Assembly: GCA_035550475.1 (NCBI GenBank) | Contig: DASZPB010000073.1 | Coordinates: 76,224 to 140,223, forward strand | Direction of reading: 5' to 3' | Length of the DNA: 64,000 nucleotides | Origin: Bryobacteraceae bacterium | GTDB taxonomy: Bacteria; Acidobacteriota; Terriglobia; Bryobacterales; Bryobacteraceae | Shown: positions 1-12,069 of the stretch, piece after piece | Position numbering within the stretch: position 1 is the first letter of the stretch | How the letters are laid out: the number at the start of each line of letters is the position of its first letter | The notes under the pieces: generated by a model | Told to the model about the DNA's origin: nothing | The model's database searches: none | Seen by the model: the letters and a program-made list of their open reading frames with translations, nothing else | Position numbers and translations under genes: made by a program

Positions 1-344
1 GGCGCGACCGCACGCGAGCCCTGCAGACACTGGATACGTTGTCTCGCGAGGGAGAATACCTGCCGCTGGCGCTGGCATTCCTTTCGACGCAAATGCGCAT
101 GGCGCTGGCTGCCCGTGAGGCGGGACTCAAGAGCGCTTCGCAGGTTCAGGGACATTTTGCCCGGATGGGTGTGCCGATGTGGGGATCGCGCGCCGATCAG
201 ATCTACCAGACCATGTCAAAGTTCAGCAAGACCCAACTCGAACAAGGGCTGCGGTTGATCTTCGACGCGGATAAAGGATTGCGTAGTGCCCGGCCGGACG
301 ACCGGATCATCATGGAACAGTTTGTGCTGCGACTGACCGCGTGA
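1..344 (+). CDS. holA: DNA polymerase III delta subunit, C-terminal fragment (5' end outside window)
   Basis: The reading frame is open from the window edge to the stop at 344. The tail ...QLEQGLRLIFDADKGLRSARPDDRIIMEQFVLRLTA resembles the C-terminal helical domain of Pol III delta. holA followed by a convergent rpsT is a common arrangement. Family call from memory. Confidence 0.55.
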   Translation, partial: RDRTRALQTLDTLSREGEYLPLALAFLSTQMRMALAAREAGLKSASQVQGHFARMGVPMWGSRADQIYQTMSKFSKTQLEQGLRLIFDADKGLRSARPDDRIIMEQFVLRLTA

Positions 345-355
345 ATGCGCCGGCC

Positions 356-622
356 TTAGCCGGCGAGGGCTTTGACGCGCAGATGCAGCCGCGATTTATA
401 GCGCGCGGCCGTATTCTTCTTAACGATGCCTCGCTGCACCGAGCGGTCAATCAAAGAAAACGTTTGCGGAAGCAGAGCTGCGGCAGCCTTGGCGTCTTTG
501 CCGGTAATGGCACGCCGCATGGCGCGGATCTGGTGACGCAGGCGGGTCTTGTTCTTCCGGTTGACTTCTGTGCGCCGTTCGGTCTGACGCCCCCGCTTCA
601 GTGCGGAATAAGTATTAGCCAT
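356..622 (-). CDS. rpsT: 30S ribosomal protein S20
   Basis: 88-aa very basic [36 protein letters not shown]... Size, N-terminal A-N-x-x-S-A-x-KR pattern and composition are typical of bacterial S20. Confidence 0.95.
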
Positions 623-1228
623 CTGTGCTTAAGTGTAATCCTTACAAAAGTATCGAGTATCCAGGATACCGCAATCGAGCGGCCCCGGGCAACCGAAGCG
701 GGCGCTACGGCTAGGGCATTCGGCCTGAAAGGCTGCGAATATGCCGTGGACGGGAGTTGGGGGGCTTACACCGGATTGTCATGCCCATGACGAATCTTTA
801 AAATGCTGCTGCCGTCATGTGGATGGGCGATGGCGGGCTCCCATCCAATGAGGTGCGAGCAACGACCCCGGATAGAGCGATGGTAGGAGCCTGCTTCGAG
901 CAGACCCGCCCCGGTTTGGTAAGGGTGAAGAAGCCGCGCCGCTTCGTTGCAGGCGAGCGCGTTTCCTGTGTCCTCCGGGAGGTCCATCCCTGAGAAGCAG
1001 AATTCTCTAAGCGTATTTAACTCGACAAGCGAAGGCTGATCTCATCGTTGTCAGGAAGGCGGTCATGATCATGCTGGGGAAGATGCTGGGCAAGAACACT
1101 CCTGGCGCACGCATCAGACCGATTGACCAGCGTCAGAGCTTTCGATTGTCGTAGCGATGCACTCGCGCGGCTCAGCCGCCTCGACTGCTGGTTCACACCG
1201 GAACCAATCACGATCGGAGGTATGCGTG

Positions 1229-2494
1229 ATGCAGAAATTTGACGATATCTACACCGAATCGAACGGTACGGCCACGTTCACGCTGGGGCTGAACGGAAAG
1301 AACGGCAAGTTGTTCCTCGAAAACGCAGCGGCTGCACAAAGCATGCTGTTCGACGGGGACACGAACACGATTACCCTGGGAGGTGACAAGGCGGGAAGTG
1401 GAACTCTCAGTCTCAACAATGGTTCCGGAAAGGACGGCGTAGTCATCCGGGCCACAACTCCCGTGGCCTTCAACCCGGCGAGTACTCCCGTGATGCGCGG
1501 GCTCACCGCAACTCCGGAGATCCCCAAAACGGGTGGCTATCTCAGCCTCCGGACAAGCGAGGGCAAGGAGAATATTCTCCTGGATGGATCGATTGGCAGT
1601 GTGACCATTGGGGGCGGTGGAGAAGACGGCGCTTTAAAGATCCTCACGGCGAGCGGCGCTGCGGCCATCGCACTAACCGGTAGCAGTTCGACGATTACCG
1701 TGGGTGTCAAAGGCGCCGGCGGCGACGTCCACCTGCAAAGCGAAGACGGACAGGAGACGCTGGTTCTGCGCGGTTCCGCCGGAATAGCGGCTGTGGGCGG
1801 CGGCGGCAAGGACGGCGTGCTCATCGTCAAGGGCGCGGGCGATAAGGAGACAGTGATCCTCAAGGGAGCGACCGGGTCGCTGATACTCGGCGGCGCGGGC
1901 GGGCACGATGGCGACATCACCATCAAGACCGCAGCCGGCAACAACACCATTACGCTCGATGGATCGGACGCCCTGCTCACACTGGGCGGAGTGGGAGCGA
2001 ACGGCGACATCATCATCAAGAACGACAATGATATTGAGACCATCAAAATCACCGGCGCGGATGGCGACATCACGTTCCTGAATGCCGACGTGGCGGAAGA
2101 GTTCGACGTTCCCGCCGGGCTGCTGGACGATGTGGCGCCCGGAGTCGTTGTGGTGCTCGATGAAGAGGGCAGAATCGTTCCGTGCGAGCGCGCCTACGAT
2201 GGCAGAGTGGCGGGCATCGTCGCCGGGGCAGGCTCGTATCGCCCGGGCATTGTGCTCGATCGCAGCGGGGCGATGAACCGCCGTCCGGTGGCGCTCGCCG
2301 GGAAAGTCTACTGCTGGGTGGACGCCGGCGCTCACTCCGTACGCGCGGGCGACCTGCTCACTACCAGTTCCAATCGGGGGCACGCCATGGCGGCCACCGA
2401 CCGCGCCCGAGCTTTCGGGAGTGTCATCGGCAAAGCACTGCGTCCTTTGACCTCCGGCTGCGCGTTGATTCCTGTATTGGTAACCCCGCGTTAG
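1229..2494 (+). CDS. Gly/Asp-rich beta-solenoid repeat protein with C-terminal phage tail-fibre-type intramolecular chaperone/autocleavage (peptidase G2-like) domain
   Basis: ORF 1157-2494 trimmed to ATG 1229 (GGAGG at 1216-1220, 8-nt spacer). It has about eight ~31-aa repeats, e.g. TIGGGGEDGALKI, AVGGGGKDGVLIV, ILGGAGGHDGDITIK, TLGGVGANGDIIIK and ITGADGDITF, alternating with x-h-x-LDG/LKG strands. The junction NADVAEEFDV follows (D at 2087-2089, E at 2096-2098). The ~135-aa C-terminal domain (GRVAGIVAGAG...RRPVALAGKVYCWVDA...GDLLTTS) matches my memory of the ADYAEYF-type junction of phi29 gp12-like IMC domains. No signal peptide or TM segment. Confidence 0.6.
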   Translation: MQKFDDIYTESNGTATFTLGLNGKNGKLFLENAAAAQSMLFDGDTNTITLGGDKAGSGTLSLNNGSGKDGVVIRATTPVAFNPASTPVMRGLTATPEIPKTGGYLSLRTSEGKENILLDGSIGSVTIGGGGEDGALKILTASGAAAIALTGSSSTITVGVKGAGGDVHLQSEDGQETLVLRGSAGIAAVGGGGKDGVLIVKGAGDKETVILKGATGSLILGGAGGHDGDITIKTAAGNNTITLDGSDALLTLGGVGANGDIIIKNDNDIETIKITGADGDITFLNADVAEEFDVPAGLLDDVAPGVVVVLDEEGRIVPCERAYDGRVAGIVAGAGSYRPGIVLDRSGAMNRRPVALAGKVYCWVDAGAHSVRAGDLLTTSSNRGHAMAATDRARAFGSVIGKALRPLTSGCALIPVLVTPR

Positions 2495-2503
2495 GAGCGA
2501 GCT

Positions 2504-4258
2504 ATGCCGATCAGCGTCAAGAAAGATATCAAACCGCACTTCGGATTCGGCGACAACTTCGCGCTCGGTGACACTCCGGTTTTCATACCACTCGATAAGC
2601 CGCCCGTTCGATACCGCGATGCCGGCGGCTCTTACTTGGGCTATATGAAGCCGGTGATTGCCCAGTACCATTGGGACCAGTTCTACCGGTCGTGGGGCGT
2701 GGGGCATATACAGAGGGATGCGGCCAAGGCCGTTTCCCGGAAGTTTGATCTCCCTTCCGGCCTGGAGGCCGCTTTCGACGAACTATGGGACTTCGTCAAG
2801 CAGGCCCGGAAGTTCGAATGCGATAAAAAGTCCGACGGCACCATCAGCGGAGACCTGAAGACGGCGTACCACCTTGCGGCCCAATTGGCGAAAGGCGATT
2901 CCACTGTTAAGGACAAGACATTCGGACGCGCGGTCCAGAGAACGGACACAAAGTTTGTCATCTTCTCTGACTTCCACATGACTGCATTCGATTCTACTTT
3001 GCCGAACTATTACTTCGATGTCTTCCACAACGACCAGTTATACCTCCAGGTGCTGGATTACTATCTCAATACGGAGGATGGCTTCTGTCTGGTGGAAAAC
3101 GGCGACGTAGAAGACTGTCTGCTGTACGTGCCCAGTCTCAGCGAGGCACAATCCCGGCGAGCTGCCGCGCCTCCAAAAGGCGGCGATCCGGAACAGAACC
3201 CCATCGATTATCCCGTCATGAACGGTGCGGATTGGGACGACTTCCTGCAGCGGCGGTACCTCAAACGCCTGGATAGCCAGAACAACATCTTCAATCGCTT
3301 TCCCGAGTACTACAGAACAGTCAAGAAGTTCATGGATAAAAAGAAGTACATTCGGCTGGCAGGCAATCACGACAGCTATCTGGATGAGGACCATGAACGC
3401 GACTTACGCGACAATCTAAAGAAGCTCCATGGAATCGACGTGTTCGATGCGCTGCAAATCAAGCCGGGAGGTGGGGCCATCAAGTATCTCGTCTTACACG
3501 GACACCAGTTCGATGGCGCATGTATGCAACATGGTCAGATTCCGTTTGCGAAGAGCTGCGGTGAGATCTACACCGAATGTCTGTCCTGGGCCAATCAGGG
3601 CGCGGACCGCGTTTGGACGGAATCCGACACAAAGCTCTGGTACAATCACGGTTCGTTTGCCAATTTACTGGCGACGGAAAAACCGTCAAATTACGTCAAC
3701 AAGAGTCACTGTCACGATGTAGTTCCTTCCGGAGCGTTCGACCTGATCTTCGATTCGGTAGAAGATGTCAAGAAAGATAGCCGCTCTTTTATAGAGACTC
3801 TGTTGGGCGCGCAGATCGGATGGGAATACTTCGAGAACTGTCAGGGCGAAAGCGCCGATGGCGGTAAGACGGACGGTTTCAACGCGTTCACTCTTGAGGT
3901 ATGGACCGGCGAGGAAATGTACAAACTGAAGCACATGAATGAAGTGGACCTGTGCGACGGATACGCCGGCGAGTTTGACGAAGGCTCCGAAATTCCAACA
4001 CTGATCGTGGGACACACGCACGAGCCGCGCCACGAAGCGATGTATAAGGATTCCAAGTCAGGACAGCTCCAGTCGCGCAAATTCTATATGAACTCGGGAT
4101 CCGCGGGACGGTACGAGAATCTGATTTGGGGCATCGAAATCGAGGGCGACAGCGCCAAGGTCATTTCCTATTCGAATATCAATGGAACTCTGACCAAGAT
4201 CGAATGGAAGCCGCAAGGCGCGCGGTTGGAACACGCGAACGTGATCCCGATCCGGTAG
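2504..4258 (+). CDS. Calcineurin-like metallophosphoesterase, atypically large (584 aa) with N-terminal extension and large insertions
   Basis: ATG 2504 lies 9 nt after the previous stop, with AGGAG at 2493-2497. All five phosphoesterase motifs are present in order: FVIFSDFHM (DxH), ENGDVED (GDxxD), LAGNHDS (GNHD), LHGHQFD (H) and VGHTHEP (GHxH). No signal peptide or TM. Confidence 0.8.
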   Translation: MPISVKKDIKPHFGFGDNFALGDTPVFIPLDKPPVRYRDAGGSYLGYMKPVIAQYHWDQFYRSWGVGHIQRDAAKAVSRKFDLPSGLEAAFDELWDFVKQARKFECDKKSDGTISGDLKTAYHLAAQLAKGDSTVKDKTFGRAVQRTDTKFVIFSDFHMTAFDSTLPNYYFDVFHNDQLYLQVLDYYLNTEDGFCLVENGDVEDCLLYVPSLSEAQSRRAAAPPKGGDPEQNPIDYPVMNGADWDDFLQRRYLKRLDSQNNIFNRFPEYYRTVKKFMDKKKYIRLAGNHDSYLDEDHERDLRDNLKKLHGIDVFDALQIKPGGGAIKYLVLHGHQFDGACMQHGQIPFAKSCGEIYTECLSWANQGADRVWTESDTKLWYNHGSFANLLATEKPSNYVNKSHCHDVVPSGAFDLIFDSVEDVKKDSRSFIETLLGAQIGWEYFENCQGESADGGKTDGFNAFTLEVWTGEEMYKLKHMNEVDLCDGYAGEFDEGSEIPTLIVGHTHEPRHEAMYKDSKSGQLQSRKFYMNSGSAGRYENLIWGIEIEGDSAKVISYSNINGTLTKIEWKPQGARLEHANVIPIR

Positions 4259-4341
4259 ACCGAACCGCATGGGTGAGAACTCGCGGTCCTCCACTAAGCC
4301 GAGTTTCCGTGACCGGGTAATAACTTTACATCGAAAAGTAC

Positions 4342-4370
4342 TTGATGCTGCACGCCAAAGCGAGTACAAT
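4342..4370 (+). promoter_or_regulatory. Sigma-70-like promoter (TTGATG-17 nt-TACAAT) placed so that transcription would start at or next to the ATG at 4377 (possible leaderless mRNA)
   Basis: TTGATG at 4342-4347, a 17-nt spacer and TACAAT at 4365-4370. Only 6 nt separate the -10 element from ATG 4377, and there is no Shine-Dalgarno in between. Pattern match only. Confidence 0.35.
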
Positions 4371-4376
4371 AGCGCT

Positions 4377-4991
4377 ATGGCGTCGATCCGCCCGATTCGC
4401 GCACCTGCGCCGCCACCGGTCGAGATGCAGGCTCATGCACTCGATCACTTGCAGTACATCCGCCGTACCATGGAGCGAGCCGGCGCGTTCACGGCCGTGC
4501 CTGGTCTGGGCGGCATCTTCATGGGATTCACAGCGTTAGCGGCCGCATGGATGGCCTCGCGGGAAGCCACCGCGGCGGCGCGCATGGGAGTGTGGCTATC
4601 GGCGGCGGCAGTGGCTTTGCTGGCCGGCATCGCCGCCGCCTCGCGGAAATCGCGCCGGGCCGGCGTTCCGCTGTTTTCAGGCCCCGGACGCAAGTTCGTG
4701 GCGGGTTTTGTTCCGCCTTTGCTGGCAGGCGCGGTACTCACGGTCGTGCTGTTTCGTGCCGAACTGGCGGCTTTCCTGCCGGGAGCGTGGCTTTTGCTCT
4801 ATGGCGCCGGCGTGGTTTCGGGCGGCGCGGCTTCGGTGCGCGTGGTGCCGCTGATGGGAATGTGCTTCATGCTGCTGGGCGCCGCGGCGCTGCTTTTCTC
4901 GCCCGGATGGAACGATTTGCTACTGGCGGCGGGGTTCGGCGGCTTGCACATCCTGTTTGGGATCGTTATTTCGGTGAAGTATGGCGGCTGA
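4377..4991 (+). CDS. Integral membrane protein, unknown function (about 5 hydrophobic segments)
   Basis: ORF 4269-4991 trimmed to ATG 4377 (MASIRPIRAP...). It has repeated long Ala/Leu/Gly-rich hydrophobic stretches and GC-rich third codon positions. No family recognised. Confidence 0.6.
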   Translation: MASIRPIRAPAPPPVEMQAHALDHLQYIRRTMERAGAFTAVPGLGGIFMGFTALAAAWMASREATAAARMGVWLSAAAVALLAGIAAASRKSRRAGVPLFSGPGRKFVAGFVPPLLAGAVLTVVLFRAELAAFLPGAWLLLYGAGVVSGGAASVRVVPLMGMCFMLLGAAALLFSPGWNDLLLAAGFGGLHILFGIVISVKYGG

Positions 4992-5033
4992 GGGCGGCAT
5001 TCCGGCCGAACCGGCGGAAAGGAAAATCTCAGA

Positions 5034-5399
5034 ATGAGTTCGAAAGCAAATACGGCCCGGCATCTCCGGGAAAAGAAGGCACAGCCGGCGGTGGTCCCCG
5101 GACAAACGTCGAAGCTTGATCGCCTGATCCATGAGCGGTTGCGGCTGGGAATCCTGAGCGCACTTTCGGTCAATGAATCGCTCACTTTCAACGAATTGAA
5201 GAAGTTACTCGACACCACGGACGGCAACCTCAGTGTTCACGCGCGGAAACTGGAAGATGCGGGCTATATTTCCTGTGCGAAGTCGTTTGAAGGCCGCATG
5301 CCGCGCACGGACTACCGTTTGTCAGCCGCCGGGCGCCGCGCCCTTGAGCGCTATCTGGATCACATGGAAGCCCTTATTCAGGCCATGCGCGAAAAATAG
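5034..5399 (+). CDS. Winged-helix transcriptional regulator (ArsR/HTH_34-like)
   Basis: 121 aa. LDRLIHERLRLGILSALSVNESLTFNELKKLLDTTDGNLSVHARKLEDAGYISCAKSFEGRMPRTDYRLSAAGRRALERYLDHM is a typical wHTH with wing and C-terminal helix. It lies 42 nt downstream of the membrane protein gene. Confidence 0.75.
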   Translation: MSSKANTARHLREKKAQPAVVPGQTSKLDRLIHERLRLGILSALSVNESLTFNELKKLLDTTDGNLSVHARKLEDAGYISCAKSFEGRMPRTDYRLSAAGRRALERYLDHMEALIQAMREK

Positions 5400-5410
5400 G
5401 AAGTTTTTTT

Positions 5411-6139
5411 ATGCCTCAGCTCTTTATTTTACAAAGTACTTTTCATACGGCCCTGATCATGGATGGCAATGGCCGCTGGGCAGCGGCGCGCGGACTGCCC
5501 CGGATTGCCGGTCACCGCGCCGGAGCCCAAACCGCGCAGCGTGTGGTCGAGGCCGCGCCGGACCTGGGAATCAGTGTGCTGACCCTATTCACTTTTTCTT
5601 CCGACAACTGGCGGCGTCCTCCGGAAGAAATCCGGACGGTAATGTCACTTCTGGCGGAGTACCTGGAAAAAGAAGCGGCGCGCTGCCGCGAACACGGCGT
5701 CCGGCTGGAAGTGATCGGCCGCCGGGATCGACTGGACCCAGCGCTGCGGGCCGGCATTGCCCGCGCCGAGCAGCGAACAGCAAGCGGCAGCAGGCTCTGG
5801 CTACGGCTGGCCGTCGATTACTCGGGTCGGGACGCGATCCTCGCTGCCGCCGGCCGTGTGCTGGAGCTCTCGCGTGACTCGATCGGCGGCGTTTTGGGTC
5901 CCCCGGTGGACCTTTTGATCCGCACTGGAGGCGAGCGGCGTCTCAGCGATTTTTTGCTCTGGGAAAGCGCCTATGCCGAACTGGTCTTTTCGCAAAGGAT
6001 GTGGCCGGACTTCGGCGCGGAAGAGTTGGCCGGGGCTGTGCGCGAGTTCCGTTTGCGGGAGCGCCGTTTCGGCGGGGTGCCCGCGCCGCCGATCCATGGG
6101 CGGCACTCGGCGACTGGCGAGACGCCTTGGCTGGAATAG
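5411..6139 (+). CDS. uppS: Undecaprenyl diphosphate synthase (cis-isoprenyl transferase)
   Basis: HTALIMDGNGRWAAARGLPRIAGHRAG near the N-terminus and RTGGERRLSDFLLWESAYAELVFSQRMWPDF near the C-terminus are hallmark UppS motifs. Confidence 0.93.
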   Translation: MPQLFILQSTFHTALIMDGNGRWAAARGLPRIAGHRAGAQTAQRVVEAAPDLGISVLTLFTFSSDNWRRPPEEIRTVMSLLAEYLEKEAARCREHGVRLEVIGRRDRLDPALRAGIARAEQRTASGSRLWLRLAVDYSGRDAILAAAGRVLELSRDSIGGVLGPPVDLLIRTGGERRLSDFLLWESAYAELVFSQRMWPDFGAEELAGAVREFRLRERRFGGVPAPPIHGRHSATGETPWLE

Positions 6140-6151
6140 AAGCCGACGCCG

Positions 6152-6877
6152 CTAAGTACCGCGCTGGTTGCCATAAAGTTCCACGTGCAGACGCGGGCTG
6201 AAGCGGTATCCTTCCCGCTTGCAGATTTCGGCCAGCCAGACGGAGCGTTCGCGCAGCACTTCGCGGTCTACCCCTTCCGGCATCAGGATGACGTGCTCGG
6301 GCCCGGTATCGAGAACACTCAGCAGCTCGCGCACTTCCTCCAAATCGACCGGGTTTGCGATGACGAACTTGAGCTGGTATTCATAGGTATCCATCAACTC
6401 CCGTAGTTTCGCGGTCTGGATGCGCAGGCGATTGTGTTGAGTGGCCCAACTGCCCTCCGGTGTCGAGTTGGAAAGCTTGGGACTGATGCTCATCAGATCG
6501 CAGGAGACCGGCTGCACCATGGTGCCCGCGGTTTCGATGGTGATATGCAAACCCAATTCGCGCAAAGCTTCGGTCAGCGGCACGATTTCCGGTGCGATCA
6601 TTGGCTCCCCGCCGGTGATCACCGCGTGATGCGCGGGATAACTCTTCACCTGCTCCAGGATTTCACCGATGCTCAGGTCTGTGCCTTCCGGGTTCCAGGA
6701 TGTATAGGGGGTGTCGCACCAGGCGCAGCGAAGGTTGCAGCCGCTGGTTCGGATGAAGACGGAAGGCATTCCCACCAGCGAGCCCTCCCCCTGAATTGAA
6801 AAGAACAGCTCAGCGATCTTCAATGCCGGCCTCTTGGAAGCCTTTGCGGCGCAGCAGACAGGAATCGCATTGCCCAC
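6152..6877 (-). CDS. queE: 7-carboxy-7-deazaguanine synthase (radical SAM)
   Basis: [39 protein letters not shown] is the QueE N-terminal signature. The start is uncertain. The longest ORF overlaps queC by 68 nt, while an in-frame TTG at 6823 (LKIAELFF...) would give a 14-nt overlap and a more typical N-terminus. Confidence 0.88.
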
Positions 6878-7481
6878 AGGGACGGCCGTCGGGCGCGGGG
6901 TCGTAGCAGCTATGCGTCAACCCGAAGGGCAGGCTCAGTTCGTGCGCCAGTTTGACAATTTGAGCTTTGCTGAGCGCGAGCAGCGGCGTGTGGATCTGCA
7001 AATGGGTTTTGCCTTCCACGCCGGCCCTGGTGGCGAGGTTGGCCATCGTCTGATAAGCCGCGATGTACTCCGGACGGCAATCGGGATAACCGGAATAATC
7101 GAGCGCGTTGACGCCGATGAAGATGTCGGAACTTTCGAGCACTTCGGCCCAGGCGAGGGCGAAGGAAAGAAAAATCGTATTGCGAGCGGGCACGTAAGTG
7201 ATGGGAATGCCATTTCCCATTTCGGCGGCGGAGCGGCCTTTAGGAACCGCAATATCGGCGGTGAGGGCGGAACCACCGAAGGCTTCCAGATCGATGCGCG
7301 CTACCATATGCCGTTCTGCTCCGAGGTGCGCGGCTATACGGGAGGCCGCCTCCAGTTCGATTCGGTGCCGCTGGCCGTAATCGAATGAAAGGGCGTAACA
7401 GGCATAGTCCTCACGCCGCGCCAGAGCCAGGCAGGTGGAAGAGTCGAGTCCTCCGCTCAATAGACAAACCGCTCGCTTCAC
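6810..7481 (-). CDS. queC: 7-cyano-7-deazaguanine synthase
   Basis: PP-loop [19 protein letters not shown], the central [13 protein letters not shown] motif and the C-terminal zinc cysteines [14 protein letters not shown]. Confidence 0.93.
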
Positions 7482-7537
7482 GTGGTTAATTTGAGCTTAA
7501 CGAATTTCCGGAGAGGCCGGTATCATAGTACGCGTAA

Positions 7538-8602
7538 GTGCGAATCCGTTTTCTGACTGCAACCCCAATGGATGTGCGACGCGGCAGTGGCACGTACGTC
7601 GGGATTCACGTTCTGGCGCGGGCGCTCACCGCGCTCGGCCATACCGTCGAATTCGAAACGCCGCACCGGCGGTTCCCGGTCTACACCGTGGAGCGATTGC
7701 TGTTCAACTATTCGCTGCGGCCTTCAGCCGATTTCGATCTCACGGTCGGCTTCGATATGGATGGCTACCGGATCGCGGGCCGCGAACGGGCGCACGCGGC
7801 ATCGCTCAAAGGCGTAATCGCCGATGAAGTGCGCTTTGAAACAGGCATGACGAAGCTCACCATGTCGCTGCAGGCACGGTGTGAAGAACAGCATGTCCAA
7901 CGCGCGGGGCTGGTGCTGGCGACCAGCCGCTACTCAGCCGGACGAGCGCGCGAATTCTACGGATTGGCAGCGGCGCCAGCGATTGTCCCGGAATTGATCG
8001 ACCTGGAAGAGTGGCGGCGATTGCTCCAACTCCATCCAGCGGCTTCCACCTCGCGCTTTCGAGTGCTCTTCGTTGGGCGGTTTTACCGAAGGAAGCGAGT
8101 CGATGTGCTATTGCGCGCGGCGGCACAATTGAACGCGCGGATTCCCGAACTCGAAGTACGCATCGTGGGCAACGGACCGTGCAGGGAGGCGCTGCATCAT
8201 CTCGCGCGGGAATTGAGGCTGGAGAAAGCCGTAACCTGGCTGGGAGACGTCTCGCGCGCGGACTTGGTCGCCGAATACAATTCATGCGGGGCCTTCTGCA
8301 TGCCGAGCGTGCAGGAAGGCTTCGGCATCGTACTGTTGGAGGCCATGGCAGCGGGGAAGGCGATTGTCGCATCCCGCGCGGCGGCAATCCCGGAAGTGGC
8401 GCCTCACGCCATCCTGGTGGAGCCGGAGAGTGCCGAAGCTCTGGCGGCCGGGATCGAAACCCTCTACCGCTCGCCGGAGGTCCGCGCGCAAGCTGCGTCG
8501 GCGGGCATGGCCCGGGTCGCCAACTTCGATGCTCCGCGGGTGGCGCGGTCGTTCCTGGAGGCGGTGAGCTGCCTCAGACCGGCCGGGACTACTTGCCCCT
8601 GA
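7538..8602 (+). CDS. Glycosyltransferase, GT4/GT-B family
   Basis: C-terminal GT-B domain with FVGRFYRRKRVDVLL..., VGNGPCREAL and the E-x7-E motif FCMPSVQEGFGIVLLEAMAAGKAIVAS. GTG start. Confidence 0.8.
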   Translation: MRIRFLTATPMDVRRGSGTYVGIHVLARALTALGHTVEFETPHRRFPVYTVERLLFNYSLRPSADFDLTVGFDMDGYRIAGRERAHAASLKGVIADEVRFETGMTKLTMSLQARCEEQHVQRAGLVLATSRYSAGRAREFYGLAAAPAIVPELIDLEEWRRLLQLHPAASTSRFRVLFVGRFYRRKRVDVLLRAAAQLNARIPELEVRIVGNGPCREALHHLARELRLEKAVTWLGDVSRADLVAEYNSCGAFCMPSVQEGFGIVLLEAMAAGKAIVASRAAAIPEVAPHAILVEPESAEALAAGIETLYRSPEVRAQAASAGMARVANFDAPRVARSFLEAVSCLRPAGTTCP

Positions 8603-8608
8603 CTTCGC

Positions 8609-10012
8609 CTACTTACAGTTGAGCCGAATGGTGAAGCCCACTTGCTGCGAAGCGCCTTCCACGGCTTTGTTCACCACGTATACTGATCCCTCCGAAGCTC
8701 CGCTCGCCAACTGGGCCGGTCTAGTCACACTCAGGATGCCTCCGGAGACGAAACCCGCGATGGGCTGCGCGGCTTCTGCCGCGCGCGACTCGGGCTGGCG
8801 GCTGAAGAGCACGGAGAACTCGGATTGCCCGGGATGTTCGAGCGTCAGCGTGCCGGATGACGGAACCAGGACAGGCACAAGCCTCTGTGCACGGACCTCC
8901 GCCAGCGGGCTCCAAGCGCCGAGCGCGGTGCGCTGCATCACATAGAGGTATCCGTTATCGTTCGGCTCCAGCCGCAGTGTGATCTGGTCGCCCACATGGA
9001 AATCGGCTGCTGGATCGGCTTCGGAGGTTGCTCCGCCGGGCGAATGCAGAAGCACCGTATAGCGCACGCCCAGATGAGGTGCATACGCGACAGTGCGCAC
9101 GGACGCACCTGCCATTCCGGGTGCGGCAGGTTGCACCTCCACACGTGCGCGTGCCGGTGCGGCTGCGGTTTTGGCCTTTCCCGCCGCATCGCTGCTCTCC
9201 GACTTCTTCAGTGACGAAATCGCTGGTCCGGCTGCCTCGTGGGCTTCAGCACTGCGGAAAGAGAAGCCGTAGTAAAGAGTGCGCGGATCTTCCGGGGAAC
9301 GCGGAGCTCCGGACGACAGATTTGCCCCGGCCACACCGCCCAGCGCCCCAAATACGGGGGAACGCGAAACGGCTTCCGATGGACCAGGCGGCGGGGCAGC
9401 GGGCGCAGCCGGAGGCGCGGGAGCCGGAACAGCGGCCGGCGGCGGAGGCGGCACGGCGTCCGCCGTCACCTCAGATTTCGCCTGGGCTTGCAGTTGACGC
9501 TCGGGCGGAGCAGATTCAAGCGCTTTGTCGCGCAAAGGCGCAGGGGCGCGACGCACCGCCCGTTTGCGTTCAACCGTCGGCGGCGTCTCGGGCTGCTCCA
9601 TCTCCACCTGCGCCCGTGGCGGTTCGGCCGGAATCACGCCGGAAGGCAACTGCCGATGATATTGAGCGACGGTGAGCGGCTCAGCCTGGTGCGCAGGATG
9701 GCGCGCTACATAGAGCACGATCAGGGCAGCACAGGCCGTCGCCGCAGCGGCGAACAGAGGCCCTCTCGCCGGTCGTCGAAACCAGCTTGCGAATCGCATC
9801 GGCCGTCGCAGCCGCCGGTTGTCCATCGTGGCGATCAACTGCGCCCGAGCCGCGGGTTCCTGCAGCAGATCGTGCAAAGCCTGCTCCCGGCTCAGCGCGT
9901 TGAATAGTTCCTGATCATCGAGCGCGGCCGCAAACAGCGCCTCGCGTTCCTCAGGCGTCAGGGTGCCGGTGGCATAACCGCCCAACAGCTTTTCGACGTC
10001 TTCCCGGTTCAT
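8609..10012 (-). CDS. Anti-sigma factor-like membrane protein with Pro/Ala-rich linker and DUF4384-like C-terminal domain
   Basis: ORF trimmed to ATG 10012, which forms an ATGA overlap with the upstream sigma gene stop. The N-terminus MNREDVEKLLGGYATGTLTPEEREALFAAALDDQELFNAL is typical of ECF anti-sigma N-domains. It has one TM (LFAAAATACAALIVLYV) and a PPPPPAAVPAPAPPAAPAAPPPGP linker. The C-terminal GDQITLRLEPNDNGYLYVMQR pattern recalls DUF4384. Confidence 0.65.
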   Translation of the reverse strand: MNREDVEKLLGGYATGTLTPEEREALFAAALDDQELFNALSREQALHDLLQEPAARAQLIATMDNRRLRRPMRFASWFRRPARGPLFAAAATACAALIVLYVARHPAHQAEPLTVAQYHRQLPSGVIPAEPPRAQVEMEQPETPPTVERKRAVRRAPAPLRDKALESAPPERQLQAQAKSEVTADAVPPPPPAAVPAPAPPAAPAAPPPGPSEAVSRSPVFGALGGVAGANLSSGAPRSPEDPRTLYYGFSFRSAEAHEAAGPAISSLKKSESSDAAGKAKTAAAPARARVEVQPAAPGMAGASVRTVAYAPHLGVRYTVLLHSPGGATSEADPAADFHVGDQITLRLEPNDNGYLYVMQRTALGAWSPLAEVRAQRLVPVLVPSSGTLTLEHPGQSEFSVLFSRQPESRAAEAAQPIAGFVSGGILSVTRPAQLASGASEGSVYVVNKAVEGASQQVGFTIRLNCK

Positions 10013-10518
10013 CGCTTCCCCGATTCCCAATCGCCGCCCATCAGCTCCAGCAGATTTTTCCGGCACCGGTGATCCCAGGTGTAGATGGTGTTGATGGCGC
10101 CCGCGCCCATCAATTTCTGAATCTCTGGAAACGTCCGGCCCTCCAGTTTGAGGCGGAACAATTCGCGGCAGCGTTCTCCCAATTGCCCGACGGCGCGTTG
10201 CAGGCGCTCAAGCATTTCCTTGCGCTCCATGGCGTCGGCGGGGTTGGAGTCCAGATCCGGCAGAGGGATATCCGAAATGGAGACTTGGTTATATTCACCG
10301 CGCCGGACCGCCTTGCGCCGTTGGGCCATAATTTTGAACCGCACGATTTGCAGGGAAAGTGGCAGGAGGTCTTCCGGACGTTCGAGGTGCGAGTATTTTT
10401 CATGCAACAGCATGAGCACCTCCTGCGCCAGATCTTCGGCGGCGTCTCTCGATAAATGAAATGCCGCGAAGGCTACGATCCTTTCACGCAGCTTCGCGAG
10501 GATCTCTTCCCGCTGCAC
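10009..10518 (-). CDS. ECF-type RNA polymerase sigma factor
   Basis: 169 aa. Region 2-like AAEDLAQEVLMLLHEKY and region 4 HTH ELFRLKLEGRTFPEIQKLMGAGAINTIYTWDHRCRKNL. Overlaps the downstream anti-sigma-like gene. Confidence 0.85.
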   Translation of the reverse strand: MQREEILAKLRERIVAFAAFHLSRDAAEDLAQEVLMLLHEKYSHLERPEDLLPLSLQIVRFKIMAQRRKAVRRGEYNQVSISDIPLPDLDSNPADAMERKEMLERLQRAVGQLGERCRELFRLKLEGRTFPEIQKLMGAGAINTIYTWDHRCRKNLLELMGGDWESGKR

Positions 10519-10650
10519 TGGTTTTACCGGCTAACGCAATGATAACAGGAACCCAAATCTGCGACCCGGCCGGCGCCGTTCCCGCGTCATGGTGCGTAAT
10601 TCCACGCAGCCCTTCTTACTTCCGGCTTTCCTTTTCCGATACAATTCGGT

Positions 10651-12069
10651 GTGTCCCGTGTCCTGATGGTTTCCTCCGAGGCCGCGCCTTTGGCCAAGAC
10701 CGGCGGGCTGGCCGATGTTGTCGGATCGCTGCCCGCCGCGCTTCAGATGTGTGGTGATGAGGCGGCGGTCGTGCTTCCGCGCTATGGCTCGATTGACCTG
10801 AAGGGCGCGCGCCGCGTCTATGACAACGTGCCGGTTTTCCTGGGTCCGGCGCGCTATGACACGGTGATTTACCAGGTTTCCGAAAAGGTTCCCTACTTCC
10901 TGGTGGATTGTCCGCCTCTGTTCGAGCGCAAAGGCTTCTACGGCGATAACGGGCGGGATTACCCGGATAATCACATTCGTTTTGCTGTTTTAGCGCGCGC
11001 CGCATTGGCCGTATCGCGGTTCCTCTTTCGCACTGACGTGTTGCACTGTCACGATTGGCAGGCCGGACTGGTGCCCGCTTATCTGCGGACTGTCTTCGCC
11101 ACTGATCCGACGTTTCTCGGCATGAAGGTGCTGTTTACTATTCACAACCTGGGCTATCAGGGGCTGTTTCCGAAGACCGCGCTGGCGCAGATCGGCCTTG
11201 ATTCCAGTGTTTTCCGGCCGGAAGGCATGGAGTTTTTTGGGCAAGTGAGCCTGATCAAAGGCGGCATTGCCTATGCGGACGCGCTCAACACGGTGAGCCC
11301 TACGTATGCCCGGGAAATTCAGACGCCGGAGTACGGTTTCGGGTTGGATGGCGCGCTGCGAGCGCGCTCGGCGGACCTGACGGGTATCCTGAATGGCGCC
11401 GATTACGGAGAATGGAGTCCGGAAATCGACCCATGGATTCCGGCCCGCTATTCGGCCGATGATCTGAGCGGAAAAGCGGTATGTAAACTGCATCTGCTAA
11501 GGGAATTCGGGTTGCCCGACGAAGCGGCCGCGCAGCCGCTGGCTGGCGTGGTTTCGCGTTTTACACGCCAGAAGGGAACCGATCTGATCGCCGAGACCGC
11601 GAGCGAGATGTTGGAAGAGGGCCTGAACCTGGTGGCCCTTGGAACCGGAGAACCGGAGTACGAAGACTTTTTCCGCCAGATCGCGGCGAAACACCCGGGT
11701 AGAATCGCTGTCCGCGTTGGATTCGACAACGCCTTAGCACACCGGATCGAAGCCGGCTCGGACCTGTTTTTGATGCCCAGCCGCTATGAACCATGTGGGC
11801 TAAATCAAATTTTCAGTTTGAGATACGGAACAGTGCCAGTGGTTCGCGCCGTCGGCGGCCTTGATGATACTATCGAAGACGGCACGGGGTTTAAATTCGC
11901 CGAATATTCCGGCGAGGCGCTTTTGGGATCTGTTCGTGCCGCTGTCCGGGCATATCGAGACCAGGACGGGTGGCGGACGATGATGCGCCGCGGAATGCAG
12001 GAGGATTTTTCCTGGAAAGTCTCGGCCGCTGAGTATTCGCGGCTGTACCGGCGGCTTCAGGAAGGATGA
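10651..12069 (+). CDS. glgA: Glycogen synthase (ADP-glucose type)
   Basis: N-terminal VLMVSSEAAPLAKTGGLADVVGSLPAAL (the KTGGL motif), HCHDWQAGL, and C-terminal LMPSRYEPCGLNQIFSLRYGTVPVVRAVGGLDDT. Confidence 0.93.
   Translation: MSRVLMVSSEAAPLAKTGGLADVVGSLPAALQMCGDEAAVVLPRYGSIDLKGARRVYDNVPVFLGPARYDTVIYQVSEKVPYFLVDCPPLFERKGFYGDNGRDYPDNHIRFAVLARAALAVSRFLFRTDVLHCHDWQAGLVPAYLRTVFATDPTFLGMKVLFTIHNLGYQGLFPKTALAQIGLDSSVFRPEGMEFFGQVSLIKGGIAYADALNTVSPTYAREIQTPEYGFGLDGALRARSADLTGILNGADYGEWSPEIDPWIPARYSADDLSGKAVCKLHLLREFGLPDEAAAQPLAGVVSRFTRQKGTDLIAETASEMLEEGLNLVALGTGEPEYEDFFRQIAAKHPGRIAVRVGFDNALAHRIEAGSDLFLMPSRYEPCGLNQIFSLRYGTVPVVRAVGGLDDTIEDGTGFKFAEYSGEALLGSVRAAVRAYRDQDGWRTMMRRGMQEDFSWKVSAAEYSRLYRRLQEG

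Follow-up and report, generated by a model that had tools for sequence, protein, structure and literature searches.

Close to the beginning of the 64,000-nucleotide stretch of DNA that we call here the window, which belongs to the metagenome-assembled genome of a Bryobacteraceae bacterium (Acidobacteriota), two genes lie side by side on the plus strand, both of them annotated as 'hypothetical'. Gene 1 (1229-2494), identical to the NCBI protein VG675_23430, is an open reading frame (ORF) of 421 amino acids proposed to code for a fibre-like carrier protein; gene 2 (2504-4258; VG675_23435), an ORF of 584 amino acids, would code for a divergent metallophosphoesterase, taken here as the effector, or payload, of a two-gene cassette. 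The stop codon of gene 1, TAG, occupies positions 2492-2494 and the ATG of gene 2 starts at 2504, which leaves an intergenic gap of 9 nt. A Shine-Dalgarno element, AGGAG, can be read at 2493-2497 of the plus strand, where it overlaps this stop codon and is separated by 6 nt from the ATG, in agreement with what the original prediction, made from the sequence of the window, had described. We develop in what follows the idea that this pair may be one member of a widespread family of cassettes, in which a conserved carrier is associated with exchangeable, tagged enzymes.

A carrier resembling phage tail fibres

The AlphaFold2 (AF2) monomer model of the gene 1 product has a predicted local distance difference test (pLDDT) score of 79.8 overall, rising above 90 for residues 290-420. 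This well-modelled part corresponds to a C-terminal domain (residues 272-421; 2042-2491, plus strand) that looks like an intramolecular chaperone of the G2 type, and that we propose as a trimerization and docking hub. In the PDB, Foldseek matches this domain of the model to phi29 gp12 (3suc) and its C-terminal fragment (3gqh_A), each with a probability of 1.00. In BFVD the matches aligning to this domain only are pre-neck-appendage, Peptidase-G2-IMC and tail-fibre proteins, with root-mean-square deviations (rmsd) of 1.9-2.3 Å over 139-144 residues, the entries named 'Preneck appendage protein' aligning at 2.2-2.3 Å over 144 residues; with the whole model, BFVD matches reach E values down to 5e-11. 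At the junction between fibre and chaperone the window protein displays a motif of the D-x-A-E type, N-A-D-V-A-E-E-F (2081-2104, plus strand), a putative autocleavage site. The motif had already been pointed out, and it is real: across 43 homologues, of consensus N-A-D-x-A-E-x-F, the residues N285, A286, D287, A289, E290 and F292 show no variation, or hardly any. In phi29 gp12, the D-x-A-E motif is reportedly catalytic.

The G2-type identity of the domain, as first proposed, is therefore backed by its fold and its motif, the Pfam model not being in support: PF11962 (Peptidase G2 IMC) does not match the window protein, and matches a single one of the 43 homologues (E = 1e-4). Gene 1 appears to be derived from a phage tail fibre, with a C-terminal domain of phage G2-like origin. 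It has at least 657 homologues. Conservation is concentrated in this domain, the mean column identity of which is 66% (28 sequences) as against 22% for full-length gene 1 (43 sequences).

The remainder of the protein consists of about eight beta-strand repeats, which make up the variable 'fibre' part (residues ~20-285; 1286-2083, plus strand), with a period of 31 residues and three strands per repeat. Autocorrelation peaks at offsets of 31 and 63 residues, and in the model strands recur approximately every 10 residues. Of the beta-solenoid that had been predicted, the 31-residue beta repeats are thus found; the solenoid fold is not established, the model matching extended beta-sheet proteins at low template modelling (TM) score. 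Those whole-model PDB matches (Rhs, teneurin, OspA), with a TM-score of about 0.1, were discarded as generic beta-hairpin repeats which do not indicate homology. The Toastrack family (DUF4097, PF13349) does not match the repeats of the window protein, and matches 5 of the 43 homologues (best E = 1.7e-7). The repeats may fold as a solenoid or as a helix of the Toastrack type, or each chain may contribute a single strand-set to a trimeric triple helix. Searches of Pfam, NCBIfam, PHROGs, PADLOC and the sequences of the PDB with gene 1 gave nothing but sub-threshold or noise matches; among the hits of the library searches with both proteins, those to Cupin_2, parvalbumin and ribosomal S20 were set aside as noise.

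A divergent metallophosphoesterase

The catalytic core of the second protein (2969-4021, plus strand) carries the motifs of the phosphoesterases, SDFH (residues 155-158), GD (200-201), GNHD (287-290), HGH (332-334) and GHTH (503-506). The key residues, D156/H158, G200 D201, G287 N288 H289 D290, H332/H334 and G503 H504 H506, are invariant in 52 homologues, which bears out the motif set recognized at the outset. General models recognize the family with difficulty. The Pfam Metallophos model (PF00149) yields 18.4 bits (E = 0.003), below its cut-off of 21.5, and a precomputed match to it exists for 2 of the 120 gene 2 homologues listed. No match above threshold was found in Pfam, NCBIfam, PHROGs or PADLOC, and a profile search of PDB sequences returned nothing significant. 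The AF2 monomer model is a confident one (pLDDT 91.9) and has no close solved relative, its PDB fold matches being weak (E >= 0.03, probability <= 0.63) and mostly to metallophosphoesterases, Vps29, purple acid phosphatase, Lmo2642, 5′-nucleotidase and Mre11 among them. Judged from its sequence, the gene 2 product belongs with the calcineurin-like phosphoesterases, from which it has diverged deeply; its motifs are intact, and it has acquired large helical additions.

Neither product has a transmembrane segment or a signal-like N-terminus, as had been stated: over 19-residue stretches, the Kyte-Doolittle score does not exceed 1.50 in gene 1 and 0.86 in gene 2.

Conservation of the pair

When a gene 2 profile was searched in a single genome of each GTDB species, 41 loci were recovered. 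Together with loci from an exact protein look-up, they provided 16 loci with a full-length homologue of gene 2, namely one matched from residue 1. In every one of the 16, a homologue of gene 1 directly precedes it in the same orientation, and wherever the two genes are intact they are 8-12 nt apart. These loci are drawn from at least six phyla and span the Verrucomicrobiae, Actinomycetes, Flavobacteriales, Bacteroidia, Cytophagales, the alphaproteobacterium Rhodobacter sp. TJ_12, other Pseudomonadota and the Acidobacteriota. Their flanks are made of ordinary cellular genes that vary from one locus to the next, and the spacer of 9 nt is kept in the closest relative (locus L141, 80% identity). 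The co-occurrence of the two genes is therefore established across phyla, and at these loci the pair is not embedded in a prophage or tailocin cluster. The phosphoesterase-type cassette is not followed by a conserved third gene that could specify immunity.

A further 24 distant homologues of gene 2 (26-32% identity) match from about residue 70 only, and none of them has a gene 1 homologue nearby (0 of 24). The first ~70 residues of the enzyme are therefore present or absent together with gene 1. Conserved and coupled adjacency thus supports, from sequence comparison, the view that the two genes work together as a cassette in which translation of gene 2 would be coupled to that of gene 1.

The distant phosphoesterases without gene 1 have N-termini such as MPISINCLKAALDPFIPGP, and in the same subfamily another conserved protein of about 130 amino acids is encoded upstream, ending about 8 nt before the enzyme (L020, 9489-9887; also L039, L024, L040, L028 and L023). 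This alternative neighbour suggests that enzymes of the phosphoesterase clade may invariably come second in a module of two genes, the first of which varies.

A carrier family with exchangeable partners

A profile of the C-terminal domain of gene 1 was searched against 1.84 billion representatives clustered at 50% identity. It retrieved 26,040 of them at E <= 1e-3, 17,861 at E <= 1e-10 and 6,334 at E <= 1e-30, and in each of the 150 top matches the domain extends to the last residue of the protein (150/150). Carriers are 171-688 amino acids long, with an N-terminal part in which the number and the type of repeats vary. One of them (L073, 4918-6429) opens, to the eye, with a motif of the beta/gamma-crystallin type (MADVQVFEHANFQGRS...) in place of glycine-rich repeats, so that the N-terminal module seems to be replaceable wholesale. 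The family reaches Bacillus, Streptomyces, Acidobacteriota and cyanobacteria. It has plasmid-borne members, always annotated as hypothetical, in cultured Bacillus, Streptomyces, Rhodococcus, Paraburkholderia, Hymenobacter, Runella, Acaryochloris and a Rhodobacteraceae strain.

The most telling property of the family concerns the gene that follows the carrier. In a survey of 80 metagenomic loci, found via the C-terminal domain and in which the next same-strand gene was taken as the partner, this gene was hypervariable: at least 24 mutually unrelated families were counted in about 90 loci. Besides the phosphoesterase and several kinds of metzincins, they include a tyrosinase (PF00264, E = 2.8e-22), a phospholipase C (PLC)-like phosphoesterase (PF04185, E = 8e-65), a hydrolase that resembles EEP but does not reach the Pfam threshold, an enzyme that looks GDSL-like to the eye, proteins with a glycine zipper or transmembrane segments, and many families of unknown function; a weak Nakanori-like match and a BNR partner were also seen. 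Carriers with C-terminal domains about 90% identical are followed by unrelated partners (L064 and L100; L049 and L052), which implies that partners are exchanged on a short evolutionary timescale. At loci seemingly deprived of a partner, genes with the terminal tag described in the next section were found slightly further downstream, sometimes two in succession.

A short terminal tag common to unrelated partners

The window enzyme begins with MPISVKKDIKP, and its N-terminal segment MPISVKKDIKPHFGFGDNFALGD (2504-2575, plus strand) is an instance of a tag, phi-S-phi-K/R-x-x-phi, that recurs across partner families. In the relatives of gene 2 linked to gene 1 the N-terminus reads MPIS[VI]K.D[VI]K...FSL[KR]D, and in the homologues without gene 1 this region is replaced by unrelated sequence. 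The motif displayed by unrelated partners is phi-[ST]-phi-[RK]-x-x-phi, of which P-I-S-L-R-x-L is a typical form. A partner has between one and three copies of it, most often right at the N-terminus (M-x-S-L-R...) and sometimes at the C-terminus, as in the tail of the tyrosinase, ...PFSLRRFF..GIRS..GSLRSF. A BLASTP comparison of the phosphoesterase N-terminus with the metzincin partners detected no homology beyond the short tag.

The strict motif is present in the terminal 60 residues of 31 of 61 partners, as against 45 of 634 control ORFs from the same loci (Fisher p = 7e-17), and the N-terminal form M-x-S/T-phi-K/R in 30 of 61 partners as against 17 of 634 controls (p = 8e-24), values which overstate the evidence since the partners are not independent of one another. 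A stronger argument is that the tag extends over unrelated families, 20 of the 24. At L077 (3404-6765), two consecutive and different partners end with nearly the same tag of about 35 residues, ...P-Y-[SP]-L-R-R-F-L-R-x-K-G-I-D-P-S-K-G-L-R-S-I-R-P-P-L-T-S-V-R-A-F-M-G-I, a likeness which suggests that the tag moves between genes as a cassette.

Partner swapping and the tag shift the question from that of an odd pair of genes to that of a polymorphic carrier-effector system. The trimeric scaffold positioning an enzyme, which is the closest to the family pattern of the two ideas first put forward for the pair, has to be widened in consequence, the phosphoesterase being only one of at least 24 interchangeable tagged partners.

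Genomic surroundings of the window pair

The surrounding genes are rpsT (356-622, minus strand), a gene for a membrane protein, one for an HTH_34 regulator, uppS and two radical-SAM/queuosine-like genes recognized by eye. Directly 3′ of the pair, the segment 4269-5399 contains a basic protein with multiple transmembrane segments (240 amino acids as listed ORF, 204 according to the gene caller), then the HTH_34 winged-helix regulator; these genes are not conserved beside the pair at other loci and hence probably form a separate unit.

Upstream, 0.6 kb of the plus strand (623-1228) is non-coding, with no ORF longer than 73 amino acids, consistent with the earlier remark that no convincing ORF was present, and may represent a long 5′ leader of the operon. 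No Rfam family that would point to a regulatory RNA, and no tRNA, was found in this leader, which is partly alignable with the corresponding region of L141. A candidate promoter of the sigma-70 type, TTGTCA-17-TAAAAT (776-804, plus strand), scored 10 out of 12 in a consensus scan. Its hexamers and part of its spacer are kept in L141 (TTGACA...TAAAAT), in a comparison of two sequences, and it may tentatively be taken as the promoter of the pair. Such a conserved promoter-like element, about 425 nt 5′ of gene 1, would imply a long untranslated leader.

The impression that gene 2 is rich in A/T at third codon positions did not survive computation: its GC content at these positions (GC3) is 0.684, for a window mean of 0.710 (standard deviation 0.049; z = -0.5). 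The overall GC of the gene, 0.537, reflects a deficit at codon positions 1 and 2, hence amino-acid composition and not a third-position bias, and recent horizontal transfer inferred from codon bias was rejected on the GC3 value.

This setting would suit a housekeeping or structural role, in which the fibre would act in the cytoplasm as a scaffold for a metabolic phosphoesterase, for example one of envelope-lipid or nucleotide metabolism. The place between rpsT and uppS, the housekeeping neighbours and the host-like codon usage all agree with it, as do the names 'LpxH' or 'predicted phosphodiesterase' given to some gene 2 homologues by JGI pipelines; these labels are automatic, however, and an NCBIfam search of gene 2 produced no LpxH match. 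A metabolic scaffold fits poorly, moreover, with a patchy distribution across phyla, with flanks that differ at every locus, with an enzyme that is swapped among near-identical carriers, and with cassettes often found on plasmids, in proviruses and beside transposases. We therefore deem a housekeeping function quite improbable.

Phage, mobile elements and defence genes

A carrier of phage origin raises the question of whether the pair is the leftover of a decaying prophage or tailocin, in which a tail-fibre gene happens to stand next to an unrelated moron gene. The ancestry of the C-terminal domain, and the few family members located inside predicted proviruses, speak for it. The evidence contradicts it. 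The neighbours of the pair in the window comprise no phage genes, a tRNA scan of positions 1-12000 and an Rfam search of positions 1-6000 found nothing, and no direct repeats flank the pair, the only repeats being internal to gene 1 with a spacing of 93-96 nt; the absence of phage genes, tRNA and att-like repeats noted by the original prediction is thereby upheld. Both ORFs are intact, their motifs are invariant, and the pair is kept in the 16 loci where gene 2 is full length, amid differing flanks and with no phage genes around it (L001-L016). The family has no match by tblastn in 50,697 phage genomes and no significant match in PHROGs, and is represented by just 6 loci in the 2.9 million contigs of IMG/VR. 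We rejected the prophage remnant on context, phage-genome, PHROG and repeat evidence, and give it hardly any credence. A truly phage-borne distant relative (about 31% identity) behaves in the way a phage gene would: it matches PHROG tail-fibre and virion families and adjoins a tail-fibre-like gene. The carrier family, by the searches just described, is a cellular one.

Among 135 flanking ORFs no phage structural, type VI secretion system or extracellular contractile injection system (eCIS) family was found. Among the commonest families were HEAT_2 (5), ABC_tran (3), AAA_21 (3), phage-type integrases (3) and GerE/LuxR regulators (3), with resolvases (2) and transposases also present. The settings of individual cassettes suggest regions of conflict or mobility: they adjoin an nSTAND1 NTPase, stand beside a RelE/ParE toxin-antitoxin pair or, on plasmids, lie near integrases and transposases. 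In L052 (3828-8103), a provirus with AimR (arbitrium) has an AAA_15 and DUF4435 pair, similar to PARIS, directly beside a cassette made of a carrier and a 444-residue partner, and this region looks like a defence hotspot. The PARIS-like pair at one cassette and the nSTAND1 neighbour at another give no more than hints of a role in defence or as a decoy, which the original prediction had also considered.

A proposed polymorphic conflict system

Where recognition is variable, the hub conserved and the enzymatic payload exchangeable, as here among dozens of unrelated tagged enzymes, one sees the signature, and the logic, of systems of conflict between organisms. In the reading that we prefer, with a probability of about 0.55, the window pair is one cassette of a large and apparently undescribed polymorphic system made of a carrier and tagged effectors, with an intracellular immune role favoured. 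The fast-evolving, repetitive and beta-rich N-terminal part of gene 1 would sense the invader. The conserved C-terminal domain would, by analogy with phage fibres, drive assembly of a trimer. The tag, MPISVKKDI..., would dock the phosphoesterase on this C-terminal hub; it may be speculated that a hub with three-fold symmetry suits a tag which is present in one to three copies. On sensing, the docked enzyme would be released or activated, possibly via autoproteolysis of the domain at D-x-A-E, and the outcome would be an immunity of the abortive-infection kind inside the cell. The intracellular role is favoured because there is no provision for export, because a few cassettes lie beside defence genes, and because the payloads overlap with the effectors of abortive infection, which comprise calcineurin-type phosphoesterases, metallopeptidases and membrane disruptors (PMC7159879).

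Several observations weigh against this immune reading. The window cassette lies amid housekeeping genes and has a host-like codon usage; the defence-island context is anecdotal and concerns few loci; and gene 1, gene 2 and the next ORF have no match in PADLOC-DB v2 at E <= 0.1. Some partners look extracellular (tyrosinase, PLC-like, GDSL-like and BNR proteins), effectors typical of abortive infection (TIR, SIR2, HNH, restriction endonucleases) were not seen among the partners surveyed, and some partner families have a cognate third gene, for example that of a HEAT protein, in a way that resembles toxin-immunity pairs. The regular expression that defines the tag is short, and the partner sequences carrying it are not independent. 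Docking and trimerization are predictions, and in the AF2 monomer the N-terminus of gene 2 is packed on its own helical domain (pLDDT 85-93), so that it may not be a free peptide.

Part of these facts would be better explained by the main rival, an exported or lysis-released complex similar to AB toxins, where the fibre binds a bacterial competitor or a eukaryotic grazer, the tagged enzyme is the cargo and the HEAT protein an immunity protein or inhibitor. Tail fibres do bind cell surfaces, and the partners are rich in enzymes acting on membranes, matrices or phenolics (metzincins, PF04185, PF00264, EEP, GDSL-like, and the weak Nakanori-like match). At 9 loci a small metzincin partner is followed by a HEAT-repeat (HEAT_2) protein, a conserved third gene also accompanies each of two other partner families, and HEAT proteins figure among the immunity proteins listed for polymorphic toxins (PMC3482391). 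At L047 (7473-13443), one carrier precedes two successive metzincin and HEAT_2 pairs and a further HEAT_2 gene, with an nSTAND1 NTPase on the opposite strand, and this double array is reminiscent of effector-immunity arrays. One locus lies near eCIS_core/DUF4157 proteins, and one cassette, in a provirus other than that of L052, lies between prophage lysis genes and an IS110 element. Yet whatever the phylum, the cassettes come without a signal peptide, a secretion system or a lysis gene, no signal peptide or transmembrane segment having been noted in the N-termini of family cassettes, and the same two-gene layout occurs in monoderm and diderm bacteria. The phosphoesterase type, as most other types, has no conserved immunity-like gene. 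The HEAT proteins that follow metzincin partners at L076 and L101 themselves start in a tag-like manner, with MSLRVV and MSFKVV, which suggests that they are a co-cargo rather than an immunity protein. A secreted or released toxin thus seems rather unlikely to us.

There is also a more sweeping reading, which we put forward tentatively, the odds being somewhat against it: a domesticated phage chaperone would act as a universal trimeric hub which binds an 'S-phi-R/K' tag of about 7-15 residues, borne in 1-3 copies by dozens of unrelated enzymes, while a hypervariable fibre is in charge of recognition, the whole making a self-contained two-gene immune or weapon system that spans phyla, of a hitherto undescribed kind, and a natural means of recruiting proteins in plug-and-play fashion.

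Comparison with known systems

The pair could not be placed in a described system, as had been anticipated: it has no match in PADLOC, NCBIfam or PHROGs, nor above threshold in Pfam. No description of the system was found in the curated protein libraries or in the full-text literature that we searched, the coverage of which is incomplete, so that an earlier description is possible. The nearest relatives in structure are phi29 gp12 and the G2-IMC fibres (PF11962, MEROPS G2), which share with gene 1 a fibre-like beta-rich N-terminus, a C-terminal domain of the same fold and D-x-A-E at the junction. Gene 1 differs from them in that it is found outside phages, has no recognizable N-terminal domain for attachment to the virion and falls below the Pfam threshold; that its chaperone domain is the most conserved part and that a tagged enzyme gene always comes next are not features of phage fibres either.

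In encapsulins, a short terminal peptide loads as cargo unrelated enzymes encoded beside a phage-derived structural protein. The analogy, that of a shared short terminal peptide, is a functional one only: here a fibre/chaperone domain takes the place of the HK97-fold shell, the tag differs in sequence and position, and no compartment is implied.

A eukaryotic precedent exists with MyRF, a membrane transcription factor which has domesticated the intramolecular chaperone autocleavage domain (S74-type) of a phage tailspike (PMC8326128). There too the phage triple beta-helix and the autocleaving chaperone are reused by a cell, with a processing that depends on trimerization (PMC8326128), but the chaperone belongs to the S74 and not to the G2 type, in another domain of life, and is part of a single polypeptide that does not exchange partners.

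Polymorphic toxin systems (Zhang, Aravind et al., 2012, PMC3482391), some with tail-fibre repeats and HEAT immunity proteins, have in common with the present family a conserved carrier with an enzymatic module exchanged by recombination, a cognate downstream gene for some modules and a wide, patchy distribution. They differ in that here the effector is a separate tagged polypeptide and not a C-terminal fusion, with no trafficking domain or secretion system and mostly no immunity gene. The modular anti-phage systems, CBASS, Avs/STAND and those with the effector-associated domains of Kaur et al. (2020, PMC7159879), follow the same logic of sensor, hub and variable effector, with payloads that are again calcineurin-type phosphoesterases, metallopeptidases and membrane-disrupting proteins, and short shared N-terminal adaptors that couple effectors to the core (PMC7159879). 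The cassette, unlike them, has no NTPase, cyclase or nucleotide signalling, its hub is a phage chaperone domain, and PADLOC does not match it. We can therefore understand the cassette as a variant of polymorphic conflict modules, with a real chance that its architecture is new.

Significance

If this proposal is correct, a modular conflict system absent from the catalogues of defence and toxin systems that we searched is represented in at least six phyla by a family whose sequence clusters number in the tens of thousands, and constitutes a second independent cellular domestication of a phage intramolecular chaperone, after MyRF. It would bring a new architecture of sensor, hub and effector, which operates without NTPase or nucleotide signalling, and a short docking tag of natural origin, with which enzymes of any kind might be brought onto a trimeric scaffold. 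The survey of partners also supplies a list of candidate effectors, from more than 20 families whose function is mostly unknown. Cassettes are carried by cultured organisms, Bacillus sp. JAS24-2, Streptomyces spp., Paraburkholderia sp. 22B1P, Hymenobacter sp. GOD-10R and Rhodobacter sp. TJ_12, and these hosts make the system directly testable.

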